Assembly (NCBI GenBank): GCA_951406725.2
Contig: OX597833.1
Coordinates: forward strand, 9,486,001 to 9,550,000
Length of the DNA: 64,000 bases
Source of the DNA: Octopus vulgaris
Taxonomy: Eukaryota
Direction: 5' to 3'
The notes under the pieces were generated by a model. The model did not search any database. It had not been told where the DNA came from and saw only the letters and a list, made by a program, of their open reading frames with translations. Positions within the stretch are counted from its first letter, which is position 1. Each line of letters starts with the position of its first letter. Positions 1,020 to 58,776 of the stretch are shown here, one piece after another. The position numbers and the translations under genes were made by a program.

Positions 1020-2713
1020 TCCCCTTCAGCGCCAAGCTCAACTGCTCTATCCTGACATGGAGGGTATCAGCAATGAAATCTATAACAAAACACTCATTGA
1101 CGTTGAAGACAGAATTGCTAAACTGGGTGGAAATTAATTGTCGACGTATGGTCTGCTACAAGCATTCAGGTCAGGGTCAAATAGCCTTCCCACTGCTGTC
1201 ATTCGTGAAACAACCTATGACACTCAAGTGCTTTCAAAGTACATTGTTGAAAATAAGCCTAAATTACTTCCGGACCAGCTGCATGCCTACAGAACTATTC
1301 TTAACAGTGTACGCCAACGCGAGGGACGAATCCTCTTCCTCGATGCTCCTGGAGGGACAGGAAAAACATTTATTACAAAGCTTCTCCTTGCAGAAGTCAG
1401 GTAGCATCAGGACATTGCAGTAGCTGTAGCCTCCTCTGGCATTGCAGCTACTTTGATACCTGGTGGCAGGACAGCACACTCAACTTTTAAACTCCCTCTC
1501 AATTTAGCAGCATCCGAAATGCCTTCATGCAACATCAACAAAAGCTCAGATCAGGGACAAGTACTTAAAATGTGTTATGTAATTGTCTGGGATGAGTGCA
1601 CTATGGCTCACAAGGGAGCTTTGGAAGCATTAGATAGAGCCCTGAAAGACATCCGAGACTGTCAAGCTCCAATGGGAGATGTAACGCTTCTGTTGTCAAG
1701 TGATTTCAGGCAAACTCTTCCTGTCATTCCGAAAGGCACTAGAGCTGACGAAGTTCAAGCATGCCTAAAGTCCTCTACCCTGTGGCATCATGTTACAATC
1801 TTTAGTCTCACCACTAACATGAGAGCTCAGTTACACGGCGACAAAATGTCCACAAAGTTTGCACAGGACATTTTGACACTTGGTGAAGGCAAGATGCCTC
1901 TCGATGCTGCAGGACAAATGGAAGTGTGGTCATTTTCCTTTGTTGTTAATTCTGTAGATGACCTCAAAAACAAAGTCTTTCCCAACTTCACACAAAACTA
2001 CCAAAATCACAATTGGCTGTGTGAAAGAGCAATATTAGCTCAAAAAAACGTCGCTGTTAAAAAAATTAATCAACAGCTAATGCATTCTCTTCCCAGCATT
2101 ATACACACTTACAACTCTGTTGATACAATTCCAGATATAAATGAAGTTGTGAACTATCCTCCTGAATTTCTCAATTCACTGGAGCCTCCTCGACTACCTC
2201 CACACATATTAGCACTTAAAGTTGGAACTCCTGTAATGCTACTCCGCAATCTGGAACCACCAAGACTTAGCAATGGAACACGAGTGGTGATAAAGAAAAT
2301 GATATTACACGTTATCGAGGCGATCATTCTTTCTGGATGTGGAAAAGGTGATGACGTCTTTATTCCAAGATTTCCTCTTACTCCATCAGGAGCAGAAATT
2401 CCATTTACATTCAGAAGACTGCAATTCCCCCTTCGTGTCAGCTTTGCCATGTCCATTAACAAATCTCAGGGTCAAACCCTCTCTGTAGCTGGTCTTCTCT
2501 TGGAAGAGCCCTGCTTCTCGCATAGGCAACTGTATGTTGGCTGCTCAAGAGTAGGAACCAAAAGAAACCTTTTTGTATATACTCCACAAGGAAAAACAAG
2601 GAACATTGTTTACAACGAGGTGTTATAATCTCAACAGCCAGGAGGTATATACATGATCCCCTTTTTTTAACAAATTTCATGTACTTTCATGTATTTATAT
2701 TAATATACATATA

Positions 2714-11044: not shown

Positions 11045-11560
11045 TCTTCGGTCCTTTGCGTCACGTGAGCTCAATTCACTACCTCTCTTCATCTGACACC
11101 AATCCCACATGGATTTCCACACAATTCCTACATTCAACTGCCCACCTTCACCTACACATCTGCATACCGCCTACATATACCGTCACGCACATATAAACAC
11201 TATATAAACATGCATACACACTGCGCAGCTCATTACTCACTTCATACACCATTACACGCTCACCCACGATCACCTTCCCACTCCATACACACTAACATCA
11301 AACTCTCCTAGCACCCACACCACTCACCATTATCCACACATCCACACACTATTATCCACATACCCACACAGAATCTTCAGTAGCAACACCACACACACCA
11401 CTATACGATTAGCCCCACTCATTCGCCATGTTGGACCGATGAAATATACAAGTTTTGTTTCATTCTCACTGTTTATTTTCCCTTATTCCTTTCTGATGAA
11501 GAGCATGGGCTCGAAACGTGAAGAACTTTATCATTTTTCCCGAGCGTCGAACTAATATGT
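11045..11560 (+). mobile_element. Penelope-associated 3'/pLTR-like fragment with hammerhead-like motif
   Basis: CA-rich tract followed by CTGATGA-A-GAGC-ATGG-GCTC-GAAA-CGTG (11493-11520). Downstream sequence resembles 41895-41930. Confidence 0.55.
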
Positions 11561-28659: not shown

Positions 28660-29948
28660 CGAGGGACGTTCAATAAGTAATGCCTCTGACCCACTTGCAG
28701 TTGTTTGATCTAGCTGAAATTTTGCATGTGCAATCATTTATATCTCTATAGAGTGAGTGGCAAGTTACAGCTCTGAATTAATTGTGGTTTCTGATTTACA
28801 GGTGTTTGAACCGAGTCAAGTGTGAAATGGAGCCTGTTGAGTGTCGAGCAGTGATCAGGTTTTTGTATTTGAAAGGACGCACACCACGGGAGACTTTTGA
28901 TGAAATGAAAGTAACTTATGGTGATGATGCCCCATCATATGACCTTGTAAAACGCTGGCATCGTGAATTCAAACATGGTCGGAACTCCGTGGAAACATCT
29001 CCCAGATCTGGTCGCCCCTTCTGCCATTGATGAGGCATCTGTCCGTCAAGTTGAGGCTGCCATTTTGGAAGATCGACGCATAATTATTCGCCAAATATCC
29101 CATGAGGTCAAGATTAGTACCGGATCTGTGGAAACTATCATTCATGACCATTTGCATATGCAAAAGGTGTCTGCCAGATGGATTCCCAGGTTGCTCACGC
29201 CTTTCCAGAAGCAAGAACGCGTCGAGTGTTCGAGGGTGAATTTGGAGATGTGCCAAGAAGATGAGTCAAAATTTTTCAAAAGACTGATTACACAGGATGA
29301 AACCTGGGTCCATCACGATGATCCAGAGACCAAAGCCCAGTCAATGCAGTGGAAGCACTGTGACTCACCCCTCCAAAGAAGGTAAGGGTGCAGCCCTCCT
29401 CTGGCAAGGTCATGCTCACAGTCTTCTGGGACCAGGACGGAGTAGTGATGACAGATTTCCTGGCAAAGGGTACCACAATTGCAGGAGCCTATTATGCTTC
29501 ACTTTTGAGGAAATTAAGAGAAGTTATCAAAATCAAGAGGCGGGGCAAGATCAGCAAAGGCATCCTCCTCCTGCATGACAACGCTCCGGTCCACAACTCG
29601 CTTGTCGCCAGATCAGAAGCACAGGCGTATGGCTATGAACTCCTCCCCCATCCCCCTACTTTCCTGACCTTGCACCCTCTGATTTTCACCTCTTCCCAGT
29701 CATGAAGTTGTTTTTGAAAGGAAAGCGTTTCCCAGATGATGCAGCCTTGATTTCTGAAGTCACGTTCAGGTTGGAGGACCAAGCTGGGGTCTTCTACAAA
29801 AACGGTCTCCAGAGCTGCATCAAACAACGGGAGAAATGCGTAACTCTGGGTGGTTCCTATGTAGAAAAAGACTAATAACTGTGCCAAGTTTCGTTGCTCT
29901 ACTGCTATGGGAAGTGGGTCAGGAGCATTACTTATTGAACGCCCCTCG
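28660..29948 (+). mobile_element. Mariner DNA transposon, full length (1289 bp), frameshifted transposase
   Basis: ~37-bp TIRs CGAGGG(A/G)CGTTCAATAAGTAATGC..CTGACCCACTT with TA on both sides. Transposase 28827-29875 has WIPRLL, DETWV, HDNAPVH and a frameshifted PDLAPSDF. Confidence 0.95.
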
Positions 29949-36879: not shown

Positions 36880-37048
36880 TATTGCTGTGGGCTCGCCCTC
36901 GGCAAGAAGTTAAATTTTTTTGCCCATAACACTACATGGACCCTAAGTAAGGCATGTGCAAAATTTGAATAAAATTGGTTGTGTAGTTCTCAAGTTTATT
37001 GATTCACACAGACAGACACACACACATTCTCAGGTTTATATATATAGA
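36880..37048 (-). mobile_element. Non-autonomous Helitron-like 5' end
   Basis: Minus strand A|TCTATATATATAAA followed by (TG)/(TGTC) repeats. No 3' end identified. Confidence 0.45.
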
Positions 37049-37065
37049 TATCTATCGATATATCT

Positions 37066-37126
<61 letters not shown>

Positions 37127-37162
37127 TTTATATATATTTATATATATTTATATATATATATA

Positions 37163-39903
37163 TACTCAAATTCGGTGTGTGACACACTAATTGTACATAT
37201 AAGGCAACTTGGTGTAGTTATATGTGCTACATATCACCCTCCAGATGCCCCAAGCAATGTAGGCAAGTTTGAAGACTGCCTTATAAAAATAGAAGTTCTA
37301 GTCACATTAGAACAACACATAAGTGTACTTCTTATAGGAGACTTCAATCTGCCCAATGTCAGATGGCCCGAGGGCCTTTCTCTCCCAGGAATGACACGAT
37401 GCGAACGAGAACAGGCGAGGTCCCTCCTGAACCTCATCAACACTCTGTACATGGAGCAAATAATACTCCAACCAACCATGGCAGGTAACATACTGGATCT
37501 CTGCTTCACAAATAATATGGATCTCATCCATAATGTGAAAGTGACACCGACACTACTCTCGGATCACAACATGGTAGAGCTGACCATGTACGGGCCAAAG
37601 GAAAGCATGGGCATGCAGTCTACAAGAAACTCTCAGAATCTTTCCAGCTTGAACTTCCATAAGGCAAACTGGAAACGAATTGAGAAAGAGATCCTCAAAC
37701 AAAACTGGCCTGAATGTCTCTCCATCGACATGAAACTCCAACAATTCATGTCTGTAATGCAAGCCATATGCTACAAATGTGTCCCAGAGAGAAAGGCCAC
37801 TGTACACAAGAACAAAATCCCCAGAGAGAGGAAAATTCTAATGAGACGGCGTACAAAAGTTTCAAATCGTCTAAACAAACAAATTGAAAGCAGTGAAAAG
37901 TCCCGCCTGAAAATAAAACAATTGGAAATTGAAAAATGTCTGCAACTCTCTCATGAAAAAGAAAGAGCAGACAAAAAAGCCTGGGCTATAGACAACATAA
38001 AATCTAACCCCAGAACTTTCTACAGGTATGCCAAAGAAACAGCTACGGTACACTGTAGGATAGGGCCACTCCTTGAAAAGGATGGCACACTCATAGGAAA
38101 TCCAATGAGGATAAGTGAAATACTAAATGAGCAATTCAAGAGTATTTTCACTCCACCCCTAGGGCATTTTCAAGTCAGTAATCCAACTGACTTCTTTACC
38201 ACTGCAGATATAAAATCAGAGGCAGCGATGATTGATTACATCAATATAAAGGAAGACGATGCCATAAAGGCTATAGATGAAATGAAAACAAACTCAGCTA
38301 CTGGCCCGGATGGATTCCCGGCAATCCTTCTAAAAGTATGTAAGAGAGTCCTAGCAAGACCACTGCAGTTCCTCGTTCAGAGCTTCCTTGCAACTGGCAA
38401 ACTTCCAAGAAAACCGAAGGAAGGTAAAATATGCCCTATTCATAAAGGAGGTAGCAGAGCGGAGGCCAAGAACTACAGACCTATCTCTCTGACCTCACAC
38501 ATCAGTAAGGTCATGGAACGAATAGTCAGAAGGAAACTAATCACCTTCCTTGAAGAAAATGACTTGCTGCCTGACACCCAACATGGTTTCCGACCAGGAA
38601 GAAGCTGCCTAACTCAGCTCCTACAACACTATGACTGGGTGCTGAAACGACTGCTCAACCACCCAAATGTGGAAGTCATATATCTTGACTTTGCAAAGGC
38701 CTTTGATAAAGTCGATCATGGAATGATATGTTACAAACTGCGTGATCTTGGCATAGTTGGAAAATTGGGAGAACGGCTTCATGACTTTCTCACGCAAATA
38801 GTGAGCGGTGTTCCGCAAGGCACTGTTTTGAAACCACTACTGTTCATAATGGCCCTCTCAGGCATGCCCTCAGCCACGCAGAGAGCCACGACCACAAGTT
38901 ATGCAGGTGATACAAAAGTTTCACATGCAATACAGAACCCTGAAGACACTATACACCTGCAATGTGAGTTGAAAAAAATATACAAGTGGGCTGAAAAGAA
39001 TAGCATGCAGTTCAATGCTGAAAAGTTTCAAGCTTTATGCTATCAGCATGCAAAACTAAATGCAATACCCAATAAATACGCTGGACCTGGAGGGATTGCA
39101 ATCCCAGAGGCACAATCAGTGCGAGACCTGGGTATTTACATGAGTGATGATGCAACCTTTCATGTGCATGTTGCTAAATTGGCAATGAAATGTAGGCGGC
39201 TGACCGGATGGATTCTTAGAACCTTTAGAACAAGAGACCAAGAAACCATGATGGTTCTCTGGAGGATACTTTTCCTAAGCCACTTTGACTATTGCTCTCA
39301 GCTATGGTCACCATCCAGTGTCAAGTTAATCACAGAACTGGAGGCGATCCAACGAAACTACACGAAGAAGATAGCCTCTGTGCAGCATATAAGCTACTGG
39401 GAAAGACTCAAGAGATTAAGACTCTATTCCTTAGAGCGTAGGCGAGAAAGCTATGCCATAATATACATCTGGAAGATCCTAGAAGGACTTGTCCCAAACT
39501 TTGGCATCGAGAGTTACACAAATACTAGAACTGGGCGCCACTGCGTAGTGCCAAGGACTCCAAATTTAGCATCAAGATGTAGGACAAGATACTGTGATAG
39601 CCTGGGCTTCAGAGGCCCATATTTCTTCAATATCCTCCCGAAGAATCTGAGAGACCTGCATGGGGTGGATGCAGATGTCTTTAAAATAAAACTGGATCTC
39701 TTCCTGTCAGATGTCCCAGATGAACCAACTTCACGGCAGGAGGTGCAGATGAGGGCAGCTGCATCGAACTCTCTCATGCACCAAATGGCAATTGCTAAAA
39801 AGCATTCGTGAAGTAAAATCATGTAGCAACACCAAATGGTGGTGCCCCAGCATGGCCACAGCTCGTGAGCTGAAACTAGATAAAATAAAAAAAATAAATA
39901 AAA

Positions 39904-40722: not shown

Positions 40723-41195
40723 GTAAATAACGACAAAATTGCATATTCTCTTAACTACATAATTAAGGGAGATAACTAAAAAATAACTTCAAGACTTACT
40801 TCCCTAGAATCATATAAAAAAAGACGTGACTGTTTGATCTCTCAGTGTGTTCCTTTTCCGCTTGCAAAGGGGACATAAGCATTCGCGCACGAAGAGACAC
40901 ACACATATACAACTTTTCTGCTGGTACCTTTAACAAATAAGCATTGGCCAGCTTATAATTTACATTTAATAACACACCACAACTATATAAAGTACTAACA
41001 ATATCTAGTACTACCCTTTGGACTTAATCAGGTTTTTATTTTGTTTTAGTTAGTATATATGCGTATATACACGTATGTATGTATGTATGTATGTATGTAT
41101 GTATGTATGTATGTATGTATGTATGTATGTATGTATGTATGTATGTATGTATGTATGTATATATGTATATATGTATGTTGGTATGTATGTATACA

Positions 41196-42015
41196 TAACC
41201 TTGAACTCTCAACCTTGAACTTGTTCGCATAAACTGCCCCGTTCGTTTTATTTTTATTTTCTCATATATTATCCTTTTTTTACATTCATTTCATCTGCAC
41301 GCATTTTTTTTCTCTCCTTCTTTCTGTGTTCCTTCTCTGTGTATCTTTCTGTTGAAGAGCGTAGGCTCGAAACGTTAAAGACTTGTTTTATTTATATTTC
41401 CTGAGCACCATACTAATACAATTGTTTGTTTGTATTCCACCTGCCTTCGTCTTTTGTTTATTTCCGTAAACCTGCCTTCGTCTTTTGTCTATTTTCATAA
41501 AGCTTCCCGTTATATATTACGCGCTCACGTGGTCTCACTTTCATCCTATATTCTACCAACACCACTTTCAACTCTTACCTCTACATTGGATTTTCTTTAC
41601 CCCTTGGATACTTACCATTGGCTGCACCTCTCTTTCACGGATCAAAGTGACTTTGTTATTGATGTGAAATCCTTAAAAAAATATACCACGACGTCTATAC
41701 ATTTCTAACCTTGAACTCTCAACCTTGAACTTGTTTGCATAAACTGTCCCGTTCGTTTTATTTTTATTTTCTCATATATTATCCTTTTTTTACATTCATT
41801 TCATCTGCACGCATTTTTTTCTCTCCTTCTTTCTGTGTTCCTTCTCTGTGTATCTTTCTGTTGAAGAGCGTAGGCTCGAAACGTTAAAGACTTGTTTTAT
41901 TTATATTTCCTGAGCGCCATACTAATACAATTGTTTGTTTGTATTCCACCTGCCTTCGTCTTTTGTTTATTTCCGTAAACCTGCCTTCGTCTTTTGTCTA
42001 TTTTCATAAAGCTTC
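41196..42015 (+). mobile_element. ORF-less element: two ~311-bp direct repeats, each with a hammerhead-like motif (retrozyme or PLE pLTR-like)
   Basis: 41196-41506 matches 41706-42015, with a 199-bp spacer. Motif TCTTT-CTGTTGA-A-GAGC-GTAG-GCTC-GAAA-CGTT-AAAGA at 41344-41381 and 41853-41890. Confidence 0.7.
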
Positions 42016-42049
42016 ATATATATATACATATACAGATATATATATATAT

Positions 42050-42109
<60 letters not shown>

Positions 42110-42128
42110 GGTTGTATATATATAAAAG

Positions 42129-44830: not shown

Positions 44831-47800
44831 CCCCTGTGTTCCAGGGGTTCCTCAGGAAAATGGATCACCTACCCCGGTGAACGACCAGGTAGTGAAGGAT
44901 AGGAGAGCCAAGGGAGCAGAAACCGGAAGCCCCCCTGTACCAATGGTCCTACAAAGAAATGAAAAATTAGAAAAAAAGAAGAAAAAAGGAAGGACCGAAA
45001 ACAAAAATAAGGAAGGAAAAGGAGGAAAAGACAAAACAACCAAAGTTGAAACCCCAACCCACCACACAAACAGTAGAGAACCCCATGGAGGATCCAATGC
45101 CACCCAGTACACTTCTGGAAAGAAGAAATCTGGAAGGCACCGAATAACCTGTAAATTCTACCTGCGGGGCAAATGTTGGCATGATGAGGACGGCAAAAAC
45201 AGCCGGTTCGCCCACCCGACACCCCGCCAGAACTTCAGAGGACTCAAAGAGAAAAGCTTTACCGAGGGAACACAAAAAATGTCTCTCAGGAAAACTTTCA
45301 AAAACGAAGTGCCCTCCTCAGATGTTCTGCGCAACGCAGCAGCTGAGCAAGAGTCTTTTTTGTGCATGGCGCAAAGAATTGTCCGGCAGCTAACCTGGCT
45401 ACACCAAGCACAGAGAAGGAACCCTGCCCACCACTATGCAAGACCACCACAGTCAACAGACACGGGATGGCCTCCCCTAACGCCTGCACAGCCGTCACCC
45501 CAATACTTTTACTAAATATTGGGGGCCTGTTGCATCAAAATAGAAACAAAATTTCTTTCCTGAGAGATCTTACTGCATGCAATCAAGCCCTATGCATAGC
45601 ACTTGTGGAAACTCACCTCAACCCTGATATAGATGACACAGAAGTACACATACCAAACTATGCCATACTGCGAACAGACAGAAGGGAAAGGAGCAATGGT
45701 GGGGTTGCTGTATACATCCGAGATGACCTCAAACCCCAGGTCTTAATGACATACTCAAATTCGGTATGTGACACTTTAATTGTATACATAAGACAACATA
45801 ATATAGTCATATGCAATACATATTGCCCATCGGATGCCCCAAATCACACAGGCAAGTTTGAAGATTGCCTCACAAGAATTAAAGAAATCCTCATGAATCT
45901 GGAACACCACGTGACCATATTTCTTATGGGAGATTTCAACTTCCCCAACGTCAAATGGCCCGAAGGTCACATACTCTCAGGAATGAATCATTGCAAACAA
46001 GTACAGGTGGAGTCCCTGCTCAACCTCACCAATGCCTTATTCATGGAGCAAATTGTACTCAAGCCAACTAGGGCGAATAACATTCTGGATCTCTGCTTCA
46101 CGAACAATATGGACATCATTCATGATGTGAAAGTCACACCGACATCAGTTTCGGATCACAACATAATAGAGTTGTCTATGTTTGGTCCAAAAGTAACCAG
46201 AGACATACAGCCTAAAGGAAGCACCCGAAATCTCTCCAATCTGAACTTCCACAAAGCAGATTGGAAATCGATCCAAAAAGAGATCCCCAGAGAGGACTGG
46301 CCGGAATGTCTCTCCACACCAGACATTGACATGAAACTAGAATGTGTCATGTCTTCTGTGCAAGCCGTATGCCAGAAATATGTCCCAGAGCACAAGGCCA
46401 AAACAAATAGGAGCAAGATTCCAAGAGACAGGAAGATCCTCATGAGACGACGGACGAAGGTTGCAAATCGTCTCAACCAACATCCCAAGAGTAGCGAAAC
46501 ATCCCGCCTAAAAACAACACTGATGGAGATCGAAAAAAGGCTGCAACAATCCTATGTAAAGGAGAAAGCAGACAAAGAAGCCTGGGTTATAAAAAATATT
46601 AAATCAAACCCAAAGGCCTTCTTTCATTACGCGAAAGAAACAGTCTCAGTGCACTACAAGATAGGACCCCTCCTCCAAAAGGATGGCTCCCTCATAGACA
46701 GTCCAACTAAGATCAGTGAGATGCTGAATAACCAGTTCAAAAGTGTCTTTACCACCCCGTTGGAACACAGACAAGTGAACGAACTAGTGGACTTCTTTGC
46801 CGCCTCAACTATAACCAGCGAGGCGGTTACAATAGAATGTATTGACATTAGCGAAAAAGATGTCCTACTAGCCATAGATGAAGTGGACACAAACTCAGCT
46901 GCTGGTCCAGATGGTTTCCCAGCCATCCTCCTCAAAGCGTGTAAGCATGCCCTGGCAAAACCCCTCTAGATTCTCTTCCAGAGCTTTCTTGCGAATGGCA
47001 AACTGCCAAGCAAGCTGAAGGAGAGAATAATATGCCCAATACATAAAGGGGAAGTATAGCAGATGCCCAAAATTATAGGCCTACCTCTCTGACTTCACAC
47101 ATCAGCAAAGTCATGGAACGGATAGTCAGAAAGAAACTAATCGCATTCCTTGAGGAAAATAACTTGTTGAGTGATACCCAGCATGGTTTTCGACCAGGTA
47201 GGAGCTGCCTGACCCAGCTCTTACAACATTAGGACTGGGTGTTGAGGCAGTTATTCAACAAATCAAATGTGGACGTAATCTACCTTGATTTTGCAAAAGC
47301 TTTTGACAAGGTGAATCATGGTATGATATGTCACAAACTGCGTGACCTCGGCATAGCTGGAAAATTTGGAGTGTGGTTACATGACTTCCTGAAAGATAGG
47401 AGTCAGGCAGTAGTGGTTAATGGAGCCACCTCTATGAACACGCAAATAGTGCGCGGTGTTTCACAGGGCACTGTCTTGGGACCACTACTTTTTATAGTGG
47501 TCCTCTCAGATATGCCCTCAAATGCCCGGATAGCCACTCTGGCCAGCTATGCAGACGATACGAAAGTCTCGCAGAAAATACAGAACCCCAGCGATGTTGC
47601 ACACCTGCAGCAGGAGTTGGACTAAATCTACAGATGGGCTGAGGATAATAATATGCAGTTTAATGCTGAAAAATTCCAGGCCCTGCGCTACCAGCATCCA
47701 AAACTGAATATTAAACTTACAGGAAACACCGGTCCACAGGGAATTTCAATCCCAGAGCCTAAGTCTGTGAGGGACCTAGGTATCGACATGAGTGATGATA

Positions 47801-49539: not shown

Positions 49540-52500
49540 AATGTCAGGTTACTTTCAAGTGCTACTGGTAACTTGTAACCCAGTACAACCTGTTGCATGG
49601 TCGGGTCTTCGGCGACTAAACCGGCAACCTCACCAAGCTTGCTTGTTGAGGCGGGTGTTTATTGGACACCATGCGGGATGAAAAACAAAATCCGTCAAAG
49701 GGCGGAGGAATTCTTGAGAGTCATCGGCCATCCAATAAATGTCTTAAGGTTGTATCATGCACGGGGACATAGAAATAATCGGACTGAATATCCGATCGCG
49801 CGGTTAAACCATTGGGAGTGAAGGACTCCTAGCCTTTGTTCAGGCATCCATCTAGGAGAAGGTAACTCAAGTAACTGGGATGACTCCGACATAAAACCTG
49901 CGGCTCAGTGGTTACCGATGATGTTGACTTGTTCTTCTTTTCGGATTATGGCTGCTTTTGCTTAGTGAGTGGGACTGACTCAGTGCACAGCCTTTCCTCA
50001 CTTTTAAAAAAATCTTCTTGCACAGGCATTGCACGATAACAACATTGATTGATTGATTAAATTGATTAACTAATTCATGATTGTTGATGGCGCTGTGAGT
50101 CTCAACTGAATGGCTGGCTGTAGCCTTAAAAAGCAAAAAATCAATGATGTACTAAAACAGTATAAAAATAAATGGCAGTAAGGACTCTGGAACCACATCA
50201 GCTGAAAGAGTTTGGCCCGGCAGGGGCTCCAGAGCATCACAGTCTGAACCCGGCCGTCATCATGCTGCTTTGATAGAACCAAAGAAAATATTGAATATTG
50301 GCTGTTGGAATGTACGGACACTACTTGACCGCAAGTCCACTGAATGTCCTGAAAGAAGGCCTGCGCTTGTTGCGAAGGAGCTTCAACGCTATGATCTTGA
50401 CGTCGTTGCTTTATCTGAGACGAGATTACCTGGAGATGGTCATCTTACAGAATCTTGTGGAAAACATACATTCTTTTGGAAAGGGAAGAATGAAGAGTTT
50501 AGAGGAGAAGCTGGAGTGGCATTTGCTGATAAGACTACTCTTGTGGACAAGTTGGAAGAATTCCCAGTCGGAATTAACGATCGTCTTATGTCCATGAGAA
50601 TTCCATTGGTTAAAGGAAATTATATGACCTTGGTGAGTGTGTATGCTCCAACTATGTTCTATACTGATGACGAAAAACTTTCTTTCTACCATGATTTGAA
50701 GGGAATTATAAGAAATATCCCTCGGGCAGTCATCGTACTAGGTGACTTTAATGCTAGAGTGGGTAGGGATTTTAACACATGGACTGTAATTGGAAAGCAT
50801 GGGGTGGGGAAGCGTAATAGTAATGGCATGCTTTTGCTGCAGATGTGTGAGGAGCTGCGTCTGTGTGTTACCAATGCCATGTTTCAACAAAAGAATAAGT
50901 TTAAGACTACATGGATGCAACCTGCATCTAAAGAATGGCATATTCTGGAATACATCCTTGTTAGAGTGTGTGACAGACAGGATGTGCAGTGTGCTCGTGT
51001 TCTTCGTGGAGCTGAGTGTTGGACTGACCACTGCCAAGTACGTTCAAAAGTGAAATTAGTCACAAAACATAAAATCTGAGCTGCAGGGATTACCCTGCCT
51101 AAAAGACTGGATGTTGATCGTCTTAGGTGTAATAGTGTGAAGAGAACTTTACGAGAGGAAATGAATGCTGTAGATATTGGGGAGGATTGGCCAACCCTTA
51201 AAAAGTCAGTTTATGATATTGGCGAGAAAGTTCTGGGATTGAGACAAAGAAAGCATCAAGATTGGTTTAAAGAAAATGATGAACATATAGATGATTTATT
51301 GGCTGATAAAAGACGTACTTTGTCACGCTATTTGTCAGCAAAGCTACAGGAAAGGGAAGTGTTGCATAGGGAACTCAAGGACGTAAAATCACGTCTGAGG
51401 CAAAGGCTCTCAGAGATGAGGGATACGTGGTGGAGTAAGAAGGCTGATGAGATACAGGCGGTATCATATTCCAATAACACAAAGCTGTAGTATGGTCTCT
51501 TGCTAGAAGTTTATGGACCGACGTCTTCCCTGATGACACCATTCCGAAGCAGGGATGGTAAAAACTTCTTCGTGATTCACAAGGAATTCTGCGAAGGTGG
51601 CAAGAACACTTTGATGAACTTTTGAATCAGCAGTCTGTAGTTAGTGAGGATGTTCTCAATCTCATCCCTGGATTACCTGTGAAGGCAGCACTCGCAGAAC
51701 CACCAAAGTTGGAAGAAGTTACAATGGCTGTCTCAAGGTTGAATAATGGGAAGTTTCCGGGTATGGATGGCATACATGCGGAGTTGTTACAGTATGGTGG
51801 TGAGAAACTTCTGCAGAAACTTCACTCTTTGTTTGGTAAGATATGGACTAGTGAATCTGTACGAGGACTGGAGAGATACAGTAATGGTGGAAGGGAAAGG
51901 GCAGCAGGAATGATTGTGGTAATTATAGGAGAGTATCATTGCTGTCTGTTGTAGGAAAGGTTTTATGCATGGTACTTCTGGATCGTCTGCTGAAATACGT
52001 TGCAGACTGTGTTCTTCAAGAAAGTCAATCTGGCTTTCGTGTGGAATGTGGCACTGCTGATATAATCTTTTCAGCTAGACAGCTTCAGGAGAAGTGTGGA
52101 ACAGGGTCTGGATTTGTATCAGGTTTTTGTCGATCTGACAAAAGCCTTTGATACCGTCAATAGAAAAGCATTGTGGAAAGTCCTCCAGATACTTGGGTGT
52201 CCTGAAAAGTTCCTTGCTTTGGTTAGGTCTTTTCATGAAGACATGAATGGTAGGGTGAATGTTAGAGGGAAAATGTCGGAGCCCATTGCAATACAAAATG
52301 GAAATAGGGGGATATCCTGGCACCGACCCTATTTGCCATATATTTTGCGATGGTGTTCTGTATTGCATTCAGAAACTGCAGATACGGTGTTTACATCCAT
52401 TATCGAACCTCTGGCAGCATATTTAATATCAGGCACTTTGCTGCGAAAACAAAGGCATTTACCTCTATCATGAGAGACCTTTTGTATGCAGATGATTGTG

Positions 52501-53714
52501 ATCTAGTAGCACACACAGAGATTGATATGCAACACATTTTTAATGCATTCTCTGATGCTTGCACTGCCTTAGGATTGACAGTCAATCTCAAGAAAACTGT
52601 TGTCATGCATCAATCTGCCCCTGGTAAGCAGTATAGTGTACCAAATATCTATGTGTATGTTAAACGACTTGATGTAGTTGATCAGTTTGTCTACCTGGGA
52701 AGCACTATTAATAGATATAGCAATTTGGATGATGAAATTCCACATAGAATTAGGAAAGCAAGTGTTGCTTTCGGAAGGGTAGAAAAGCGCCTCTGGAGTC
52801 GGCGAGACATATGCAGAAAGACAAAGATAAAGGTGTACAAGGCATGTGTGCTCCCTTCTCTTCTCTATGCCTGCGAGATGTGAGTCATATATCGATACCA
52901 CTTTAAACAACTGGAACGTTTCCATCAGATGTGTCTTAGACGGATCTATGGCATTAAGTGGAAGGACCGCATCAGTGATCATGAAATATTGGAAGGCTCT
53001 CGGTGTGAAAGTGTAGAAGAGCTCTTGTGTTAAAGCGAAGGCTCAGATGGAGTGGTCATCTGGTCAGGATGAAGGATTCAAGGATGCCAAAACAACTCTT
53101 TTATGGAGAGTTAGCTAAAGGAGAACAACCTCCACATAAACCAAAAAAGAGGTATAAGGACTTGCCGAAGGCTTCCTTAAGAGATGTTTGCATCTCTCCT
53201 GACACATGGGAAGGCATAGTTATTGATCGTAGCTGGTGGAGAAGGATTGTGCACGAGGGGACAGCCATTTTTGAGAAATCTCGAGTGGCACATAAGAAAG
53301 TAAGGTGGGATGTCAGGAAGCGCATCGCTGTTACACTTCCAGATGGGAAGGGTCTTCCTATGATGCTGACATGCAGTGTCTGTGCAAGACCCTGCCTCAG
53401 AAAAGCTGGACTCAAGAGTCATCTTCGTAGTCATAAAGCGAGACAGATGAGTGACAACCTGGCCACTGGTGGTGGTGTAACACACCATACTAATAATATC
53501 TGTCGGGCATGCAAAAGAGAGTGTAATTCGGCAGGAGGACTTAAACGACATGCACAGGTACATGAAGCCCAGTTACAACTACAGCCGGCTATTACCGGTA
53601 AAGGTTTTAGTTGCCAATTCTGTACAAGACTGGGCTAAAAAGTCACATTCGATCACACCGCCAGTAACAGTTAAGCTTAGTGCAATGGCCATACTCGATG
53701 ATGAGGGGGCAGCC

Positions 53715-55290: not shown

Positions 55291-55794
55291 AGTGTGTAAA
55301 ATAGAAAATAACCAGAAAAGTTTATATTCTCTTAACTACACCAGTAAGGGAGATAACTAAAAATCAACTTTTAGAGTTACTTCCCTTGACATATTAATAA
55401 AAGACATGACAGTTTAAGATGTAGGTGCGTTTATAATTCCCATGCGAAGGGCACATTTGCATTCGCGCAGGAAGATACAAACATACACATGCAAATTTTC
55501 TGCTGTTAACTTTAACAAATAAACATTATAATTTACATTTAATTACACCCGAAAACTATGTAAAGTACTCACCATATCTAGTACTACCCTTTGGACATGA
55601 TCGGGTTTTTATTTTGTTTTAGATAGTATATATGCGTATGTGGGTATATACACGTGTATATGTATGAATGCATGTATTTATGTATATAAATATATATATA
55701 TATATGTATGTATGTATATATATATATTCATAAATTTATAATTTTATATATATATATGTAGGTATATACCTATGTATATATATATATATATATA

Positions 55795-58776
55795 TACTCA
55801 AAAATGGAAGATAAAATTCCTGGAGGACTGGGTCGATGCCCATCCAAACCACATCCCTTTCTTCGTCCTCACTGAAACCCATCTTAGTAACCTCCACTTG
55901 GAAGCCGAGGTGAAAGTTAAAAATTTCAAAGCCATTCGTGCTGATCGTGCTGGCAGAAGAAAGGGTGGGACTGCCATTTATGTTCATGATTCATTCTCAA
56001 CAGAAGCTATGAACATATTTTCCAATGGATACTGCGAAGCAGTCGCTGTATTCAGTCAAACCAACAACTTAACAGTAGTTGGGCTCTACAGACCACCCCA
56101 AACGCCCCTACCATGCTTCAAGGAATGCCTCAACAACATAAAGTGTTTCATTCAGCAGTGTCAACCTGACAACATTTTAATGATGGGAGACTTCAACCTT
56201 CCCGGGGTTGACTGGTCTACAAACAGTCTGCCGCCAGGTTCTTCTCTCTCAACCCCTGACAGGGAGGCAGTGGAATCACTTCTTGACTTCATGGATGATT
56301 TCTTCCTATCCCAACTGGTGCTCGAACCAACGAGATGTCACAAAAACGTCTTAGACTTAATTTTCAGCAATCACACTGATACTATCCACAATATTGCAGT
56401 GGCGAAAACTTTACTCTCTGATCATGACATGGTTCTCTGTGATCTGAGATTTCACCGGCCAAAATGCAAAACAAATGTCATCCCTCCTGTTCATTCATTT
56501 GACACTATGGATTTCCACAATGCAAACTGGGAAGCAATCAATAATGATCTTGCACAAGTCGATTGGTCCTTCACGCACACATACACACCCACTAACATCA
56601 AAAAGTCCTGGCAGTCATTTGTAGATACCATTACGAACATATGTGCAAAACACACCCCATTAAGATCTGCAAACAAATCTAAGTGTCGAATCCCTAGAAA
56701 TAGAAAATCTCTCATCAGGAAAATTAAAAGAATTAACAAAAAAAATCAACGAGCTGAAATACTGTCAACAGCAACACACCAACCTGACTGCCATCTTGTC
56801 ACTAGAGATTAAAAAACATAAACTCCAAAACAACATGATGTCTATCATCAATAGTCAGAGAAGAGCTGAAGAGGCCTGGGCCATTGAGAAGATCAAACTC
56901 AATCACAAAGTGTTCTTTTCATTTGCAAAAATACACAGAGTCACTGGTTCTACTGTTGGCCCTCTGATTGATGAAAATGGTACTCTTCAAGACAATGCCA
57001 AAACCATGGGAGAGATATTGCAGAAACAATATTGCTCTGTTTTCAGCAATCCTGATATGACTGATCTGGGCTGTATCAGTGATGTTACTCCCCAATATAC
57101 TTTATCGGACATAACCTTTGGCGCTCCTGATGTCTTAGCAGCAATAAAGGAAATGAAGCATAATTCAGCAGTAGGTCCCGATAGGTTCCCTGCTTGTGTC
57201 TTGAAGATGTGTCAACACCAACTTGCACCCCCTCTAGCCAATCTGTGGCGGAACTCACTGGATGCTGGATATATACTAGAAGACCTTCTATCCCAGTCTG
57301 TTGTCCCAGTTTTCAAAAAAAGGAAACAAATCGCTTGCCGTGAATTACCGTCCAATCTCACCCACCTCTCATATCATTAAGGTATTTGAGAGAGTGCTGA
57401 GATCGCGTATGACTCACTTCCTCGAGAGTCATAATATGCTGAACTCCAACCAGCATGGATTCCGTAATGGAAGAGATTGCCTGACGCAGCTACTGCATCA
57501 TTTTGATGACATTTTGAGAGCCTTGGGAGAGCCTGATGTCATCTACCTTGATTTCAGCAAGGCCTTTGACAGGGTTGATCATAAGATCCTTTTGAGAAAG
57601 CTGTCCAATATTGGTGTCACTGGAAAGCTGCTGCAGTGGATCAAGTGCTTCCTGTCTAACAGAACCCAACATGTTGTAGTCGAAGGGGTCAAATCCAGCC
57701 CAGCAAAAATCAGCAGTGGTGTCCCACAAGGCACTGTGTTGGGCCCACTTCTCTTCATCATCTACATTAATGTTACTGACACCATCAAACACAGTAACAT
57801 CAGAACCTTCGCTGATGATTCCAAGCTCCAGAAGGTCATCAATGGCGTGGATGACCGAAAAAGCCTTCAGTCAGACTTACTGGCTGTTGTCCAATGGGCG
57901 GAAAAGAACAACATGTTGCTAAACGAAGACAAATTCAAACTGATCCACTTTGGAAGGGAGGACGCTCTGAAACTCCCATACTCCCTTCCTTCTGGAGAAA
58001 TATTCATGGCGTCTAACATCAGAGACTTGGGAGTAACAGTGGACAACAACATAAGCTGGGCTACACATATGAGCAGCAAAGTTGATATGGCCCGCAGAAT
58101 GTGTTCCTGGATTCTCAGAACCTTCCAGTTGAGAGATTCCCACACCATTATCCTTCTTTTCTCCACTTTTGCCCGACCCCACCTTAAATACTGCTGTCCA
58201 CTGTGGTCTCCCTACACAAAACAAAATATTATAAGAATTGAAGCTCCCCAAAGGTCAATCACAAAAAAGATAGATGGCATGTCAGACCTTGACTACTGGG
58301 GTAGACTACAGAAACTGAATCTGTATTCACTCCAACGACGCCGTGAACGCTACATTATCTGTATGATGTGGAAAATATTCCATCAGCACTGTCCGAATGA
58401 TGTTGGCATCACCTTCAAAATACATCCAAGGCTTGGACCACGTGCCATCCGTCCACAACAAAAATCTAAATCGCATCACATAACGACAATACGGCACAAT
58501 TATTTCACCTCAATTGGACCCGCTCTCTTCAACATTACACCAGGACACGTCAAAACAGAAACTGACCACACAAAATTCAAGAAGTCTTTAAACAAATTCC
58601 TTCAAACAGTCCCGGAAAAACCAACCACACCCGGATATGTCTCCGAAAACAATAGCTCTCTGCTCGAATAGGCCTCGGTGCCCAAATCCTGAATTAAAAG
58701 ACTTCGCCAGGTGGTGCTATTAAGTTAGACATGGCCTGGACCAATACTGGCCAAAACCTTTCTAAGTTATTCTAAG

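Follow-up and report, generated by a model that had tools for sequence, protein, structure and literature searches.

Fixed U-turn changes in the hammerhead motif of two Penelope-like families of Octopus vulgaris, and an ORF-less tandem copy of one family's ends

The window, i.e. the whole stretch of 64,000 nucleotides of Octopus vulgaris DNA that was analyzed, contains at positions 41196 to 42015 an ORF-less element, which consists of 1.6 units of a 510-nt monomer and stems from the ends of a Neptune-type Penelope-like element (PLE). As a locus it is an unremarkable by-product. The main finding concerns the hammerhead motif that it carries: two high-copy families of this genome possess fixed changes in the U-turn of the catalytic core, A6U and U4C, and the motif appears to have remained under selection thereafter.

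As an explanation of the element we consider it probable, though with some reserve, that the parental enzyme went more than one round on an end-joined RNA of approximately 510 nt and that the U6 hammerhead was kept as a folded signal and not as a cutter. A wider proposal is put forward tentatively, as a possibility that we would not yet call probable: both PLE lineages may have broken the U-turn independently and been amplified with the fold kept, in which case the hammerhead would mainly be a recognition structure and mini-elements would be born without cleavage.

Anatomy of the element and its parent

The original prediction had described near-identical direct repeats of about 311 bp around a spacer, inserted between (TATG)n and (TA)n and devoid of a meaningful ORF, and this description holds. 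The repeats span 41196-41506 (311 nt) and 41706-42015 (310 nt) and differ at four places (41226/41736, 41237/41747, one T within a T-run, and 41407/41916). The flanks are (TATG)n at 41073-41192 and (TA)n at 42016-42124, in a microsatellite-rich host genome of 2.8 Gb. The only ATG-initiated ORFs of the element are two of 36 aa, both on the minus strand, and an open frame of 109 codons had no Pfam match.

For mapping we used a monomer of 4,492 nt taken from a coding copy (L037), with negative positions counted relative to the predicted hammerhead cut. The order in the window is 5' region 196-294, a join, the 3' end from -85 to the tail, 5' region 1-294, the same join, the 3' end again, and (TA)n. 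The features are:

41073-41195, unstranded: (TATG)n/(TA)n microsatellite forming the left target flank; a target-site duplication is unreadable here
41196-41294, plus strand: 5'-truncated piece of the 5' region of the parental PLE, monomer positions 196-294
41294-41295, plus strand: first ORF-removing join, by which the 5' region is linked to position -85 of the 3' end, with a 1-nt microhomology (T)
41295-41509, plus strand: parental 3' end with the end of the 3' UTR, hammerhead and tail; 41509 is the usual parental 3' end
41344-41381, plus strand: first minimal type I hammerhead homologue, U6 at 41352, predicted cut after 41376
41439-41501, plus strand: two 31-nt tandem copies inside the tail, which mark one young subfamily
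41510-41804, plus strand: parental 5' region, monomer positions 1-294; its first letters are the invariant TTATATATTA found at the tandem junction
41804-41805, plus strand: second ORF-removing join, identical to the first
41805-42015, plus strand: second copy of the parental 3' end, 3 nt shorter than the usual end
41853-41890, plus strand: second hammerhead homologue, identical to the first, U6 at 41861, predicted cut after 41885
42016-42124, unstranded: (TA)n target bordering the 3' end, the situation of most family members

Because the element maps onto this monomer and matches a further coding copy (L031), the 199-bp "spacer" is parental 5' region, falling within 41510-41804. The piece at 41196-41294 is 99% identical to L031 over 99 nt and lies upstream of the parental ORF start (approximately position 637 of the monomer). 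Over the window element, identity to L031 amounts to 98.6-99%, and one variant missing from L031 occurs in both repeats (41331/41840), so that both derive from one template.

Five copies of 4.3-4.6 kb carry pieces of a PLE reverse-transcriptase and GIY-YIG ORF between matching ends; in all five long copies examined the ORF is broken. An in-frame stop early in the ORF is common to L031:8016 and L033:5697 (minus strand) and is missing from L037. The motifs DKG, MGTRMGP and YIDD are found in L037, and the CX2-5CxxC linker between reverse transcriptase (RT) and endonuclease (EN) reads CSRPRCRTC in L031, with the last C changed to Y in L037. A PLE-type RT (DKG, MG..MGP, YIDD) followed by a C-terminal GIY-YIG endonuclease is therewith present in the parent family, as are partial tandems forming pseudo-LTRs and (TA)n targets, and 2,358 homologues contain RVT_1, many of them with GIY-YIG (PF01541). 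The parent would accordingly be classed as a young Neptune-type EN+ PLE, a clade assignment made from domain motifs and not from an RT phylogeny.

This is in agreement with the Neptune-clade PLEs of Craig et al. 2021 (PMC8557442), which share the DKG/YIDD motifs, the linker, the C-terminal GIY-YIG domain and a 3' hammerhead, as well as partial tandems, inverted 5' copies, (TA)n targets and a 30-40-nt tail. To the latter feature (PMC8557442, PMC11167929) the 31-nt tail copies of the window may correspond. In contrast to these PLEs, the window copy has no ORF and its core is CUGUNGA, while canonical cores are reported there for non-Naiad PLEs. Non-autonomous PLE derivatives with pLTRs were described for Chlamys in the same paper.

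The repeat is the end region (pseudo-LTR) of a coding PLE, which largely bears out a possibility that the original prediction had named as speaking against it. The tandem junction of the young subfamilies occurs 172 times in the genome; among 90 tandem loci examined, 72 continue into the ORF. Of the others, 13 were assigned to an ORF-less and 5 to a truncated class, although inspection showed that one of these 5 lacks the ORF as well. A full-length array with three tandem junctions 4.47 kb apart (G000:C6:117391915-117400883) could be a master.

The hammerhead motif and its U-turn

Both motifs read TCTTT-CTGTTGA-A-GAGC-GTAG-GCTC-GAAA-CGTT-AAAGA and lie 509 nt apart. They comprise stem I (UCUUU/AAAGA), the core C3 U4 G5 U6 U7 G8 A9, an extra A, stem II (GAGC/GCUC), GAAA and a palindromic ACGU. 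Two matches occurred in 0 of 100 shuffles, which bears out the claim of paired hammerhead-like motifs with a CUGUUGA core, and the cuts proposed after 41376 and 41885 are correctly placed as predicted sites. An Rfam search (E<=10) found no hammerhead in the element. A custom covariance model, built on 14 of 19 canonical hammerheads found in metagenome PLE loci and having covarying stems, gave 27.3 bits for both motifs (rough E 8.5e-5), the top two of 14 hits in the window. The features of a minimal PLE type I hammerhead are present, namely stems I and II, the extra nucleotide after A9, G10.1-C11.1 and the palindromic 15.2-16.2. The core departs from the required CUGANGA (or UUGANAA), with U6 in 14,238 of 14,734 copies. 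By sequence and model score, the motif is a true homologue of the PLE minimal hammerheads. An alternative register (U3 U4 G5 A6 A7 G8 A9) offered no proper stem II on inspection.

The metazoan PLE minimal hammerheads (Cervera and De la Pena 2014, PMC4209133) are likewise of type I with a short stem I, an extra nucleotide between 9 and 10.1, G10.1-C11.1, a palindromic 15.2-16.2 and no stem III. They differ from the motif in question in that the core variant there is U3-A8 and not U6.

The original prediction had left two readings of the core, a family-wide variant or a shared inactivating mutation. The former is borne out and a private mutation at this locus is rejected: the 14,734 exact motif copies have U6 in 96.6%, A6 in 140 and C6 or G6 in 356 cases (controls 0), CTGTTGA itself not being fixed at N7. 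We also sampled 92 copies by a downstream motif outside the hammerhead. Seventy of them held the hammerhead motif, with T6 in 68 and A6 in 2 copies, N7 as A22/T30/G6/C12 and H17 as A56/T12/C1/G1; the remaining core positions were conserved in at least 66 of the 70.

Six U6 subfamilies were delimited by eye on a tree of weak support. Between their majority sequences a difference is seen at 1 of 30 constrained positions compared to 53 of 115 flank columns, the latter containing T-run noise (Fisher p 3.6e-6, with the single varying position counted as a change even though it is an artefact of locus selection). The true differences within the motif are confined to N7 and H17, exactly the positions that are free in a working hammerhead, and H17 is G in no subfamily majority (mean identity of copies to their own majority 0.91-0.98). 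The motif stayed constant while its flanks changed and was therefore under purifying selection after the loss of A6. The U6 lineage contains no compensatory change, and a constraint at the DNA level is therefore conceivable as well.

A tree of 132 copies with positions 6 and 7 masked, of rough support and arbitrary root, shows a succession of subfamilies; a small CTGATGA group of old appearance may be ancestral or a reversion. At 11487-11526 (plus strand) the window holds a 3'-end fragment of an old solo copy from this lineage, which has the canonical CTGATGA core and belongs to the group. That A6 is the ancestral state rests on outgroups: all 19 hammerheads from 18 of 80 metagenome PLE loci have A6 (loci from an alignment-based scan; an earlier scan gave no relative), and the octopus genome holds 8,289 canonical motifs (control 86).

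In a second family of high copy number, whose ends are PLE-like (e.g. L341-L370), the core is CCGACGA (U4C) in 19 of 30 sampled loci, and 8,023 exact copies of this motif exist; a canonical CTGACGA subfamily with 1,988 anchor hits stands beside it. An ORF of its own was not recovered from the loci examined for the U4C and canonical copies. Stem II is the same as in the U6 family; stem I is GTTT/AAAC compared to CTTT/AAAG. This covariation of stem I between the families points to an RNA fold.

Published work on the CUGA turn gives a hint towards the effect of U6. A mutational scan found low activity for all single mutants of the turn (PMC9901934), natural A6C has a kobs below 0.1 per min (PMC3088659) and a designed A6C loses more than 10,000-fold in Mg2+ relative to Mn2+ (PMC7151607). 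U4C and A6C variants keep some activity in nature, and U4C viroid variants remain infectious (PMC3088659). By this analogy U6 quite probably attenuates cleavage strongly. The A6C of phage Bcep176 and the U4C of viroids (PMC3088659, PMC7151607) are thus comparable as natural changes of the turn with low but non-zero activity; in contrast, the present change is A6U, is fixed in an animal retrotransposon family of more than 14,000 copies and is described here at the sequence level. The literature searched (main texts) contained no natural A6U hammerhead, so its novelty is provisional. In the window subfamily U6 permits an additional U6-A15.1 pair, with a predicted rod-like fold of -10.2 compared to -7.8 kcal/mol for the hammerhead, although the rod is not the minimum free energy (MFE) fold in every U6 subfamily. 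Taken together, U6 probably leaves the hammerhead too slow for it to delimit the template RNA.

Joins, copy ends and the template

The exact join of the window has two genome occurrences, both inside the window, and the 510-nt unit is confined to a single locus. An amplified retrozyme family was therefore ruled out. A looser join pattern produced 20 matches (including the two in the window) at 14 places, one of which is not the element, and the joins mostly differ. For the 21 ORF-less tandem loci pooled, 10 repeat one join per locus, 8 are too short to reveal a second join, and 3 continue beyond the join site into ordinary 3' UTR. Three loci (L005, L040, L277) are of precursor type, and none has the join of the window. 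Repeated joins have their 3' side at -72 to -102, and single joins are spread from -49 to -185. The genome contains approximately eight distinct repeated joins.

Two pairs of loci share a join. L236 and L256 also have their start and a core mutation in common and look like a segmental duplication, whereas L008 and L009 start differently and seem to be separate insertions of a single template, so that at least one mini-template would have given two insertions. One ORF-less array (L035, G000:C8:18600231-18602538) has five identical joins with a unit of about 492 nt and an inverted 5' copy, which together with the tandem is a typical PLE footprint.

Three other routes to the joins were rejected. 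Splicing out of the ORF does not fit, as the joins vary and lack a GT donor. Homing of a new copy into the 5' UTR of an old one is at odds with mini-copies that end in (TA)n and not in a remaining element. DNA duplication alone cannot account for a copy that begins at monomer position 196 and has a join ahead of its first hammerhead.

A further hint arises from the ends of the copies. While the 3' ends are fixed at the tail, in (TA)n, 42 of 91 solo copies start at -120 to -81, and 42 of the 56 that reach -80 stop in that stretch; 16 of 30 young solo copies start at -131 to -87. This is the same range in which the repeated joins lie. ORF-bearing tandem copies that cross the stretch a second time stop there in 1 of 61 cases, which argues that it is no general block to the enzyme. 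The stretch may instead be the start of a short transcript. In both families the 5' ends of solo copies (L311-L340, L451-L540) cluster approximately 90-130 nt upstream of the cut; they are often AT dinucleotides joined to (TA)n and may mark a transcription start. The tandem junction always continues with TTATATATTA, and priming is therefore likely internal, as shown for another PLE (PMC11167929).

Starts at the cut itself are rare in the U6 family (1 of 91 solo and 0 of 67 tandem copies). Of 92 copies from the other family that have a canonical core, likewise one has its start within 3 nt of the cut, and the lack of cut-site ends is therefore uninformative on the activity of U6. Cut-site starts had at first seemed to be in excess among the canonical cores (3 seen), but the 92 copies did not confirm this, with starts at 0 to +9 in 5 of 92 compared to 2 of 91 U6 copies (p 0.44).

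In the favored explanation a tandem parent would give rise to a short transcript, which begins approximately 85-130 nt ahead of the cut and extends approximately 220-310 nt into the next unit. Its ends would be joined, either covalently or by the RT jumping from end to end; the enzyme would nick (TA)n, prime internally at the tail end and copy 1.6 rounds. A6>U would lower cleavage, and the stems, G8, A9, G12-A14 and ACGU would be kept for binding of the PLE protein or for residual protein-assisted cleavage. A circular template is plausible, and with its join some 85 nt ahead of the cut the circle need not arise by cleavage. This scheme requires one hammerhead and no cut and is the simplest reading.

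End-joining and excision give the same circular sequence and are inseparable from DNA alone. We regard it as unlikely that the element is instead a nascent retrozyme, for which the U6 ribozyme, acting as a dimer or helped by the PLE protein or Mn2+, would slowly cleave a template-switch precursor with two hammerheads about 510 nt apart; the 509-nt piece would be ligated into a circle and copied by the PLE enzyme. The conservation pattern of a working hammerhead persists after U6, the three precursor-type loci fit an excision by two hammerheads, and identical joins are repeated up to five times in L035. Moreover, A6C is active in Mn2+ (PMC7151607), a PLE hammerhead was found to cleave only with its protein (PMC11167929), and animal retrozymes derive from PLE pseudo-LTRs (bioRxiv 10.64898/2026.07.22.740005). 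This has to be set against an assembly that holds no precursor with the join of the window, the clustering of repeated but not of single joins, and the near absence of copies starting at the cut. The double-hammerhead fold is predicted to lie 11.2 kcal/mol above the MFE, and the predicted circle is less structured than its shuffles (-50.9 compared to -56.9 +/- 4.7 kcal/mol, 40 shuffles, z +1.3).

Still less probable, in our judgement, is a purely linear origin, by which template switching and unequal crossing-over produced a tandem mini-master of two or more units, now lost or polymorphic. The window would hold a 5'-truncated retrocopy of its transcript, with a dead hammerhead conserved for a DNA-level or incidental reason. 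Multi-unit arrays do exist (the five joins of L035 and the three junctions on C6), and the U6 lineage is free of compensatory changes; but a separate lost master would be needed for each of the distinct repeated joins, and the stem I covariation between the two families speaks for the fold of an RNA.

The join of this locus is spanned by contigs in three runs presumed to be RNA; strand, ends, level and circles are not readable from contigs, and in two of the three the depth of the unique flank is of similar order to that of the join. In one run of a second organism no alternative letter exceeds 5% at position 6. These contigs are given no weight as support.

Relation to retrozymes and genomic surroundings

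Animal non-LTR retrozymes (Cervera and de la Pena 2020, PMC7229834; Li et al. 2026, bioRxiv 10.64898/2026.07.22.740005; for further background see PMC6765202) are non-coding and built of units in head-to-tail order, each with a single type I hammerhead, and they originate from PLE pseudo-LTRs; in this respect the element is alike. It is unlike them in its unit of 510 nt compared to the typical 150-450 nt, in its minimal, non-canonical core, in a join confined to a single locus without a family, and in a predicted circle that is not self-paired. The designation as retrozyme-like is thus apt for the 1.6 non-coding tandem units with two motifs; the element resembles a nascent PLE-derived retrozyme and falls short of one in amplification, core and circle structure. 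The approximately 20 ORF-less tandem loci, mostly of independent joins, could illustrate how retrozyme-like elements originate from PLE ends.

Why PLEs retain hammerheads is a question on which this genome offers a natural experiment, as it combines a U6 lineage with an older A6 subfamily and a U4C family with canonical subfamilies, the fold being kept in both. Cleavage by a PLE hammerhead is weak and dispensable for insertion in vitro, where hammerhead-dead mutants of another PLE still insert (PMC11167929), and whole PLE clades are described as lacking canonical hammerhead motifs (PMC8557442). If U6 and U4C do not cleave, selection on the fold would indicate a function other than catalysis. 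Should U6 prove active, the accepted core would be too narrow, with descriptors based on CUGANGA missing more than 20,000 motifs in this genome alone.

The original prediction had further proposed mobilization by a PLE reverse transcriptase, in line with the parentage from coding PLE copies with the same ends, and had regarded PLE relics as common in the window. The relics are in fact LINEs of the AP-endonuclease type, to which 41 of the 130 scanned ORFs belong. Searches of the window for PLE coding sequence were negative, both by tblastn with the parent protein and with a PLE profile of 31 sequences. One LINE frame of 954 codons with AP-endonuclease and RT domains is unbroken (36947-39808, plus strand), and broken LINEs lie at 45347-47622, 50156-52880 and 55742-58668. 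The window also contains fragments of a PIF1-like helicase, likely of a Helitron (1405-2625, plus strand), and of a mariner-type transposase (29364-29702, plus strand).
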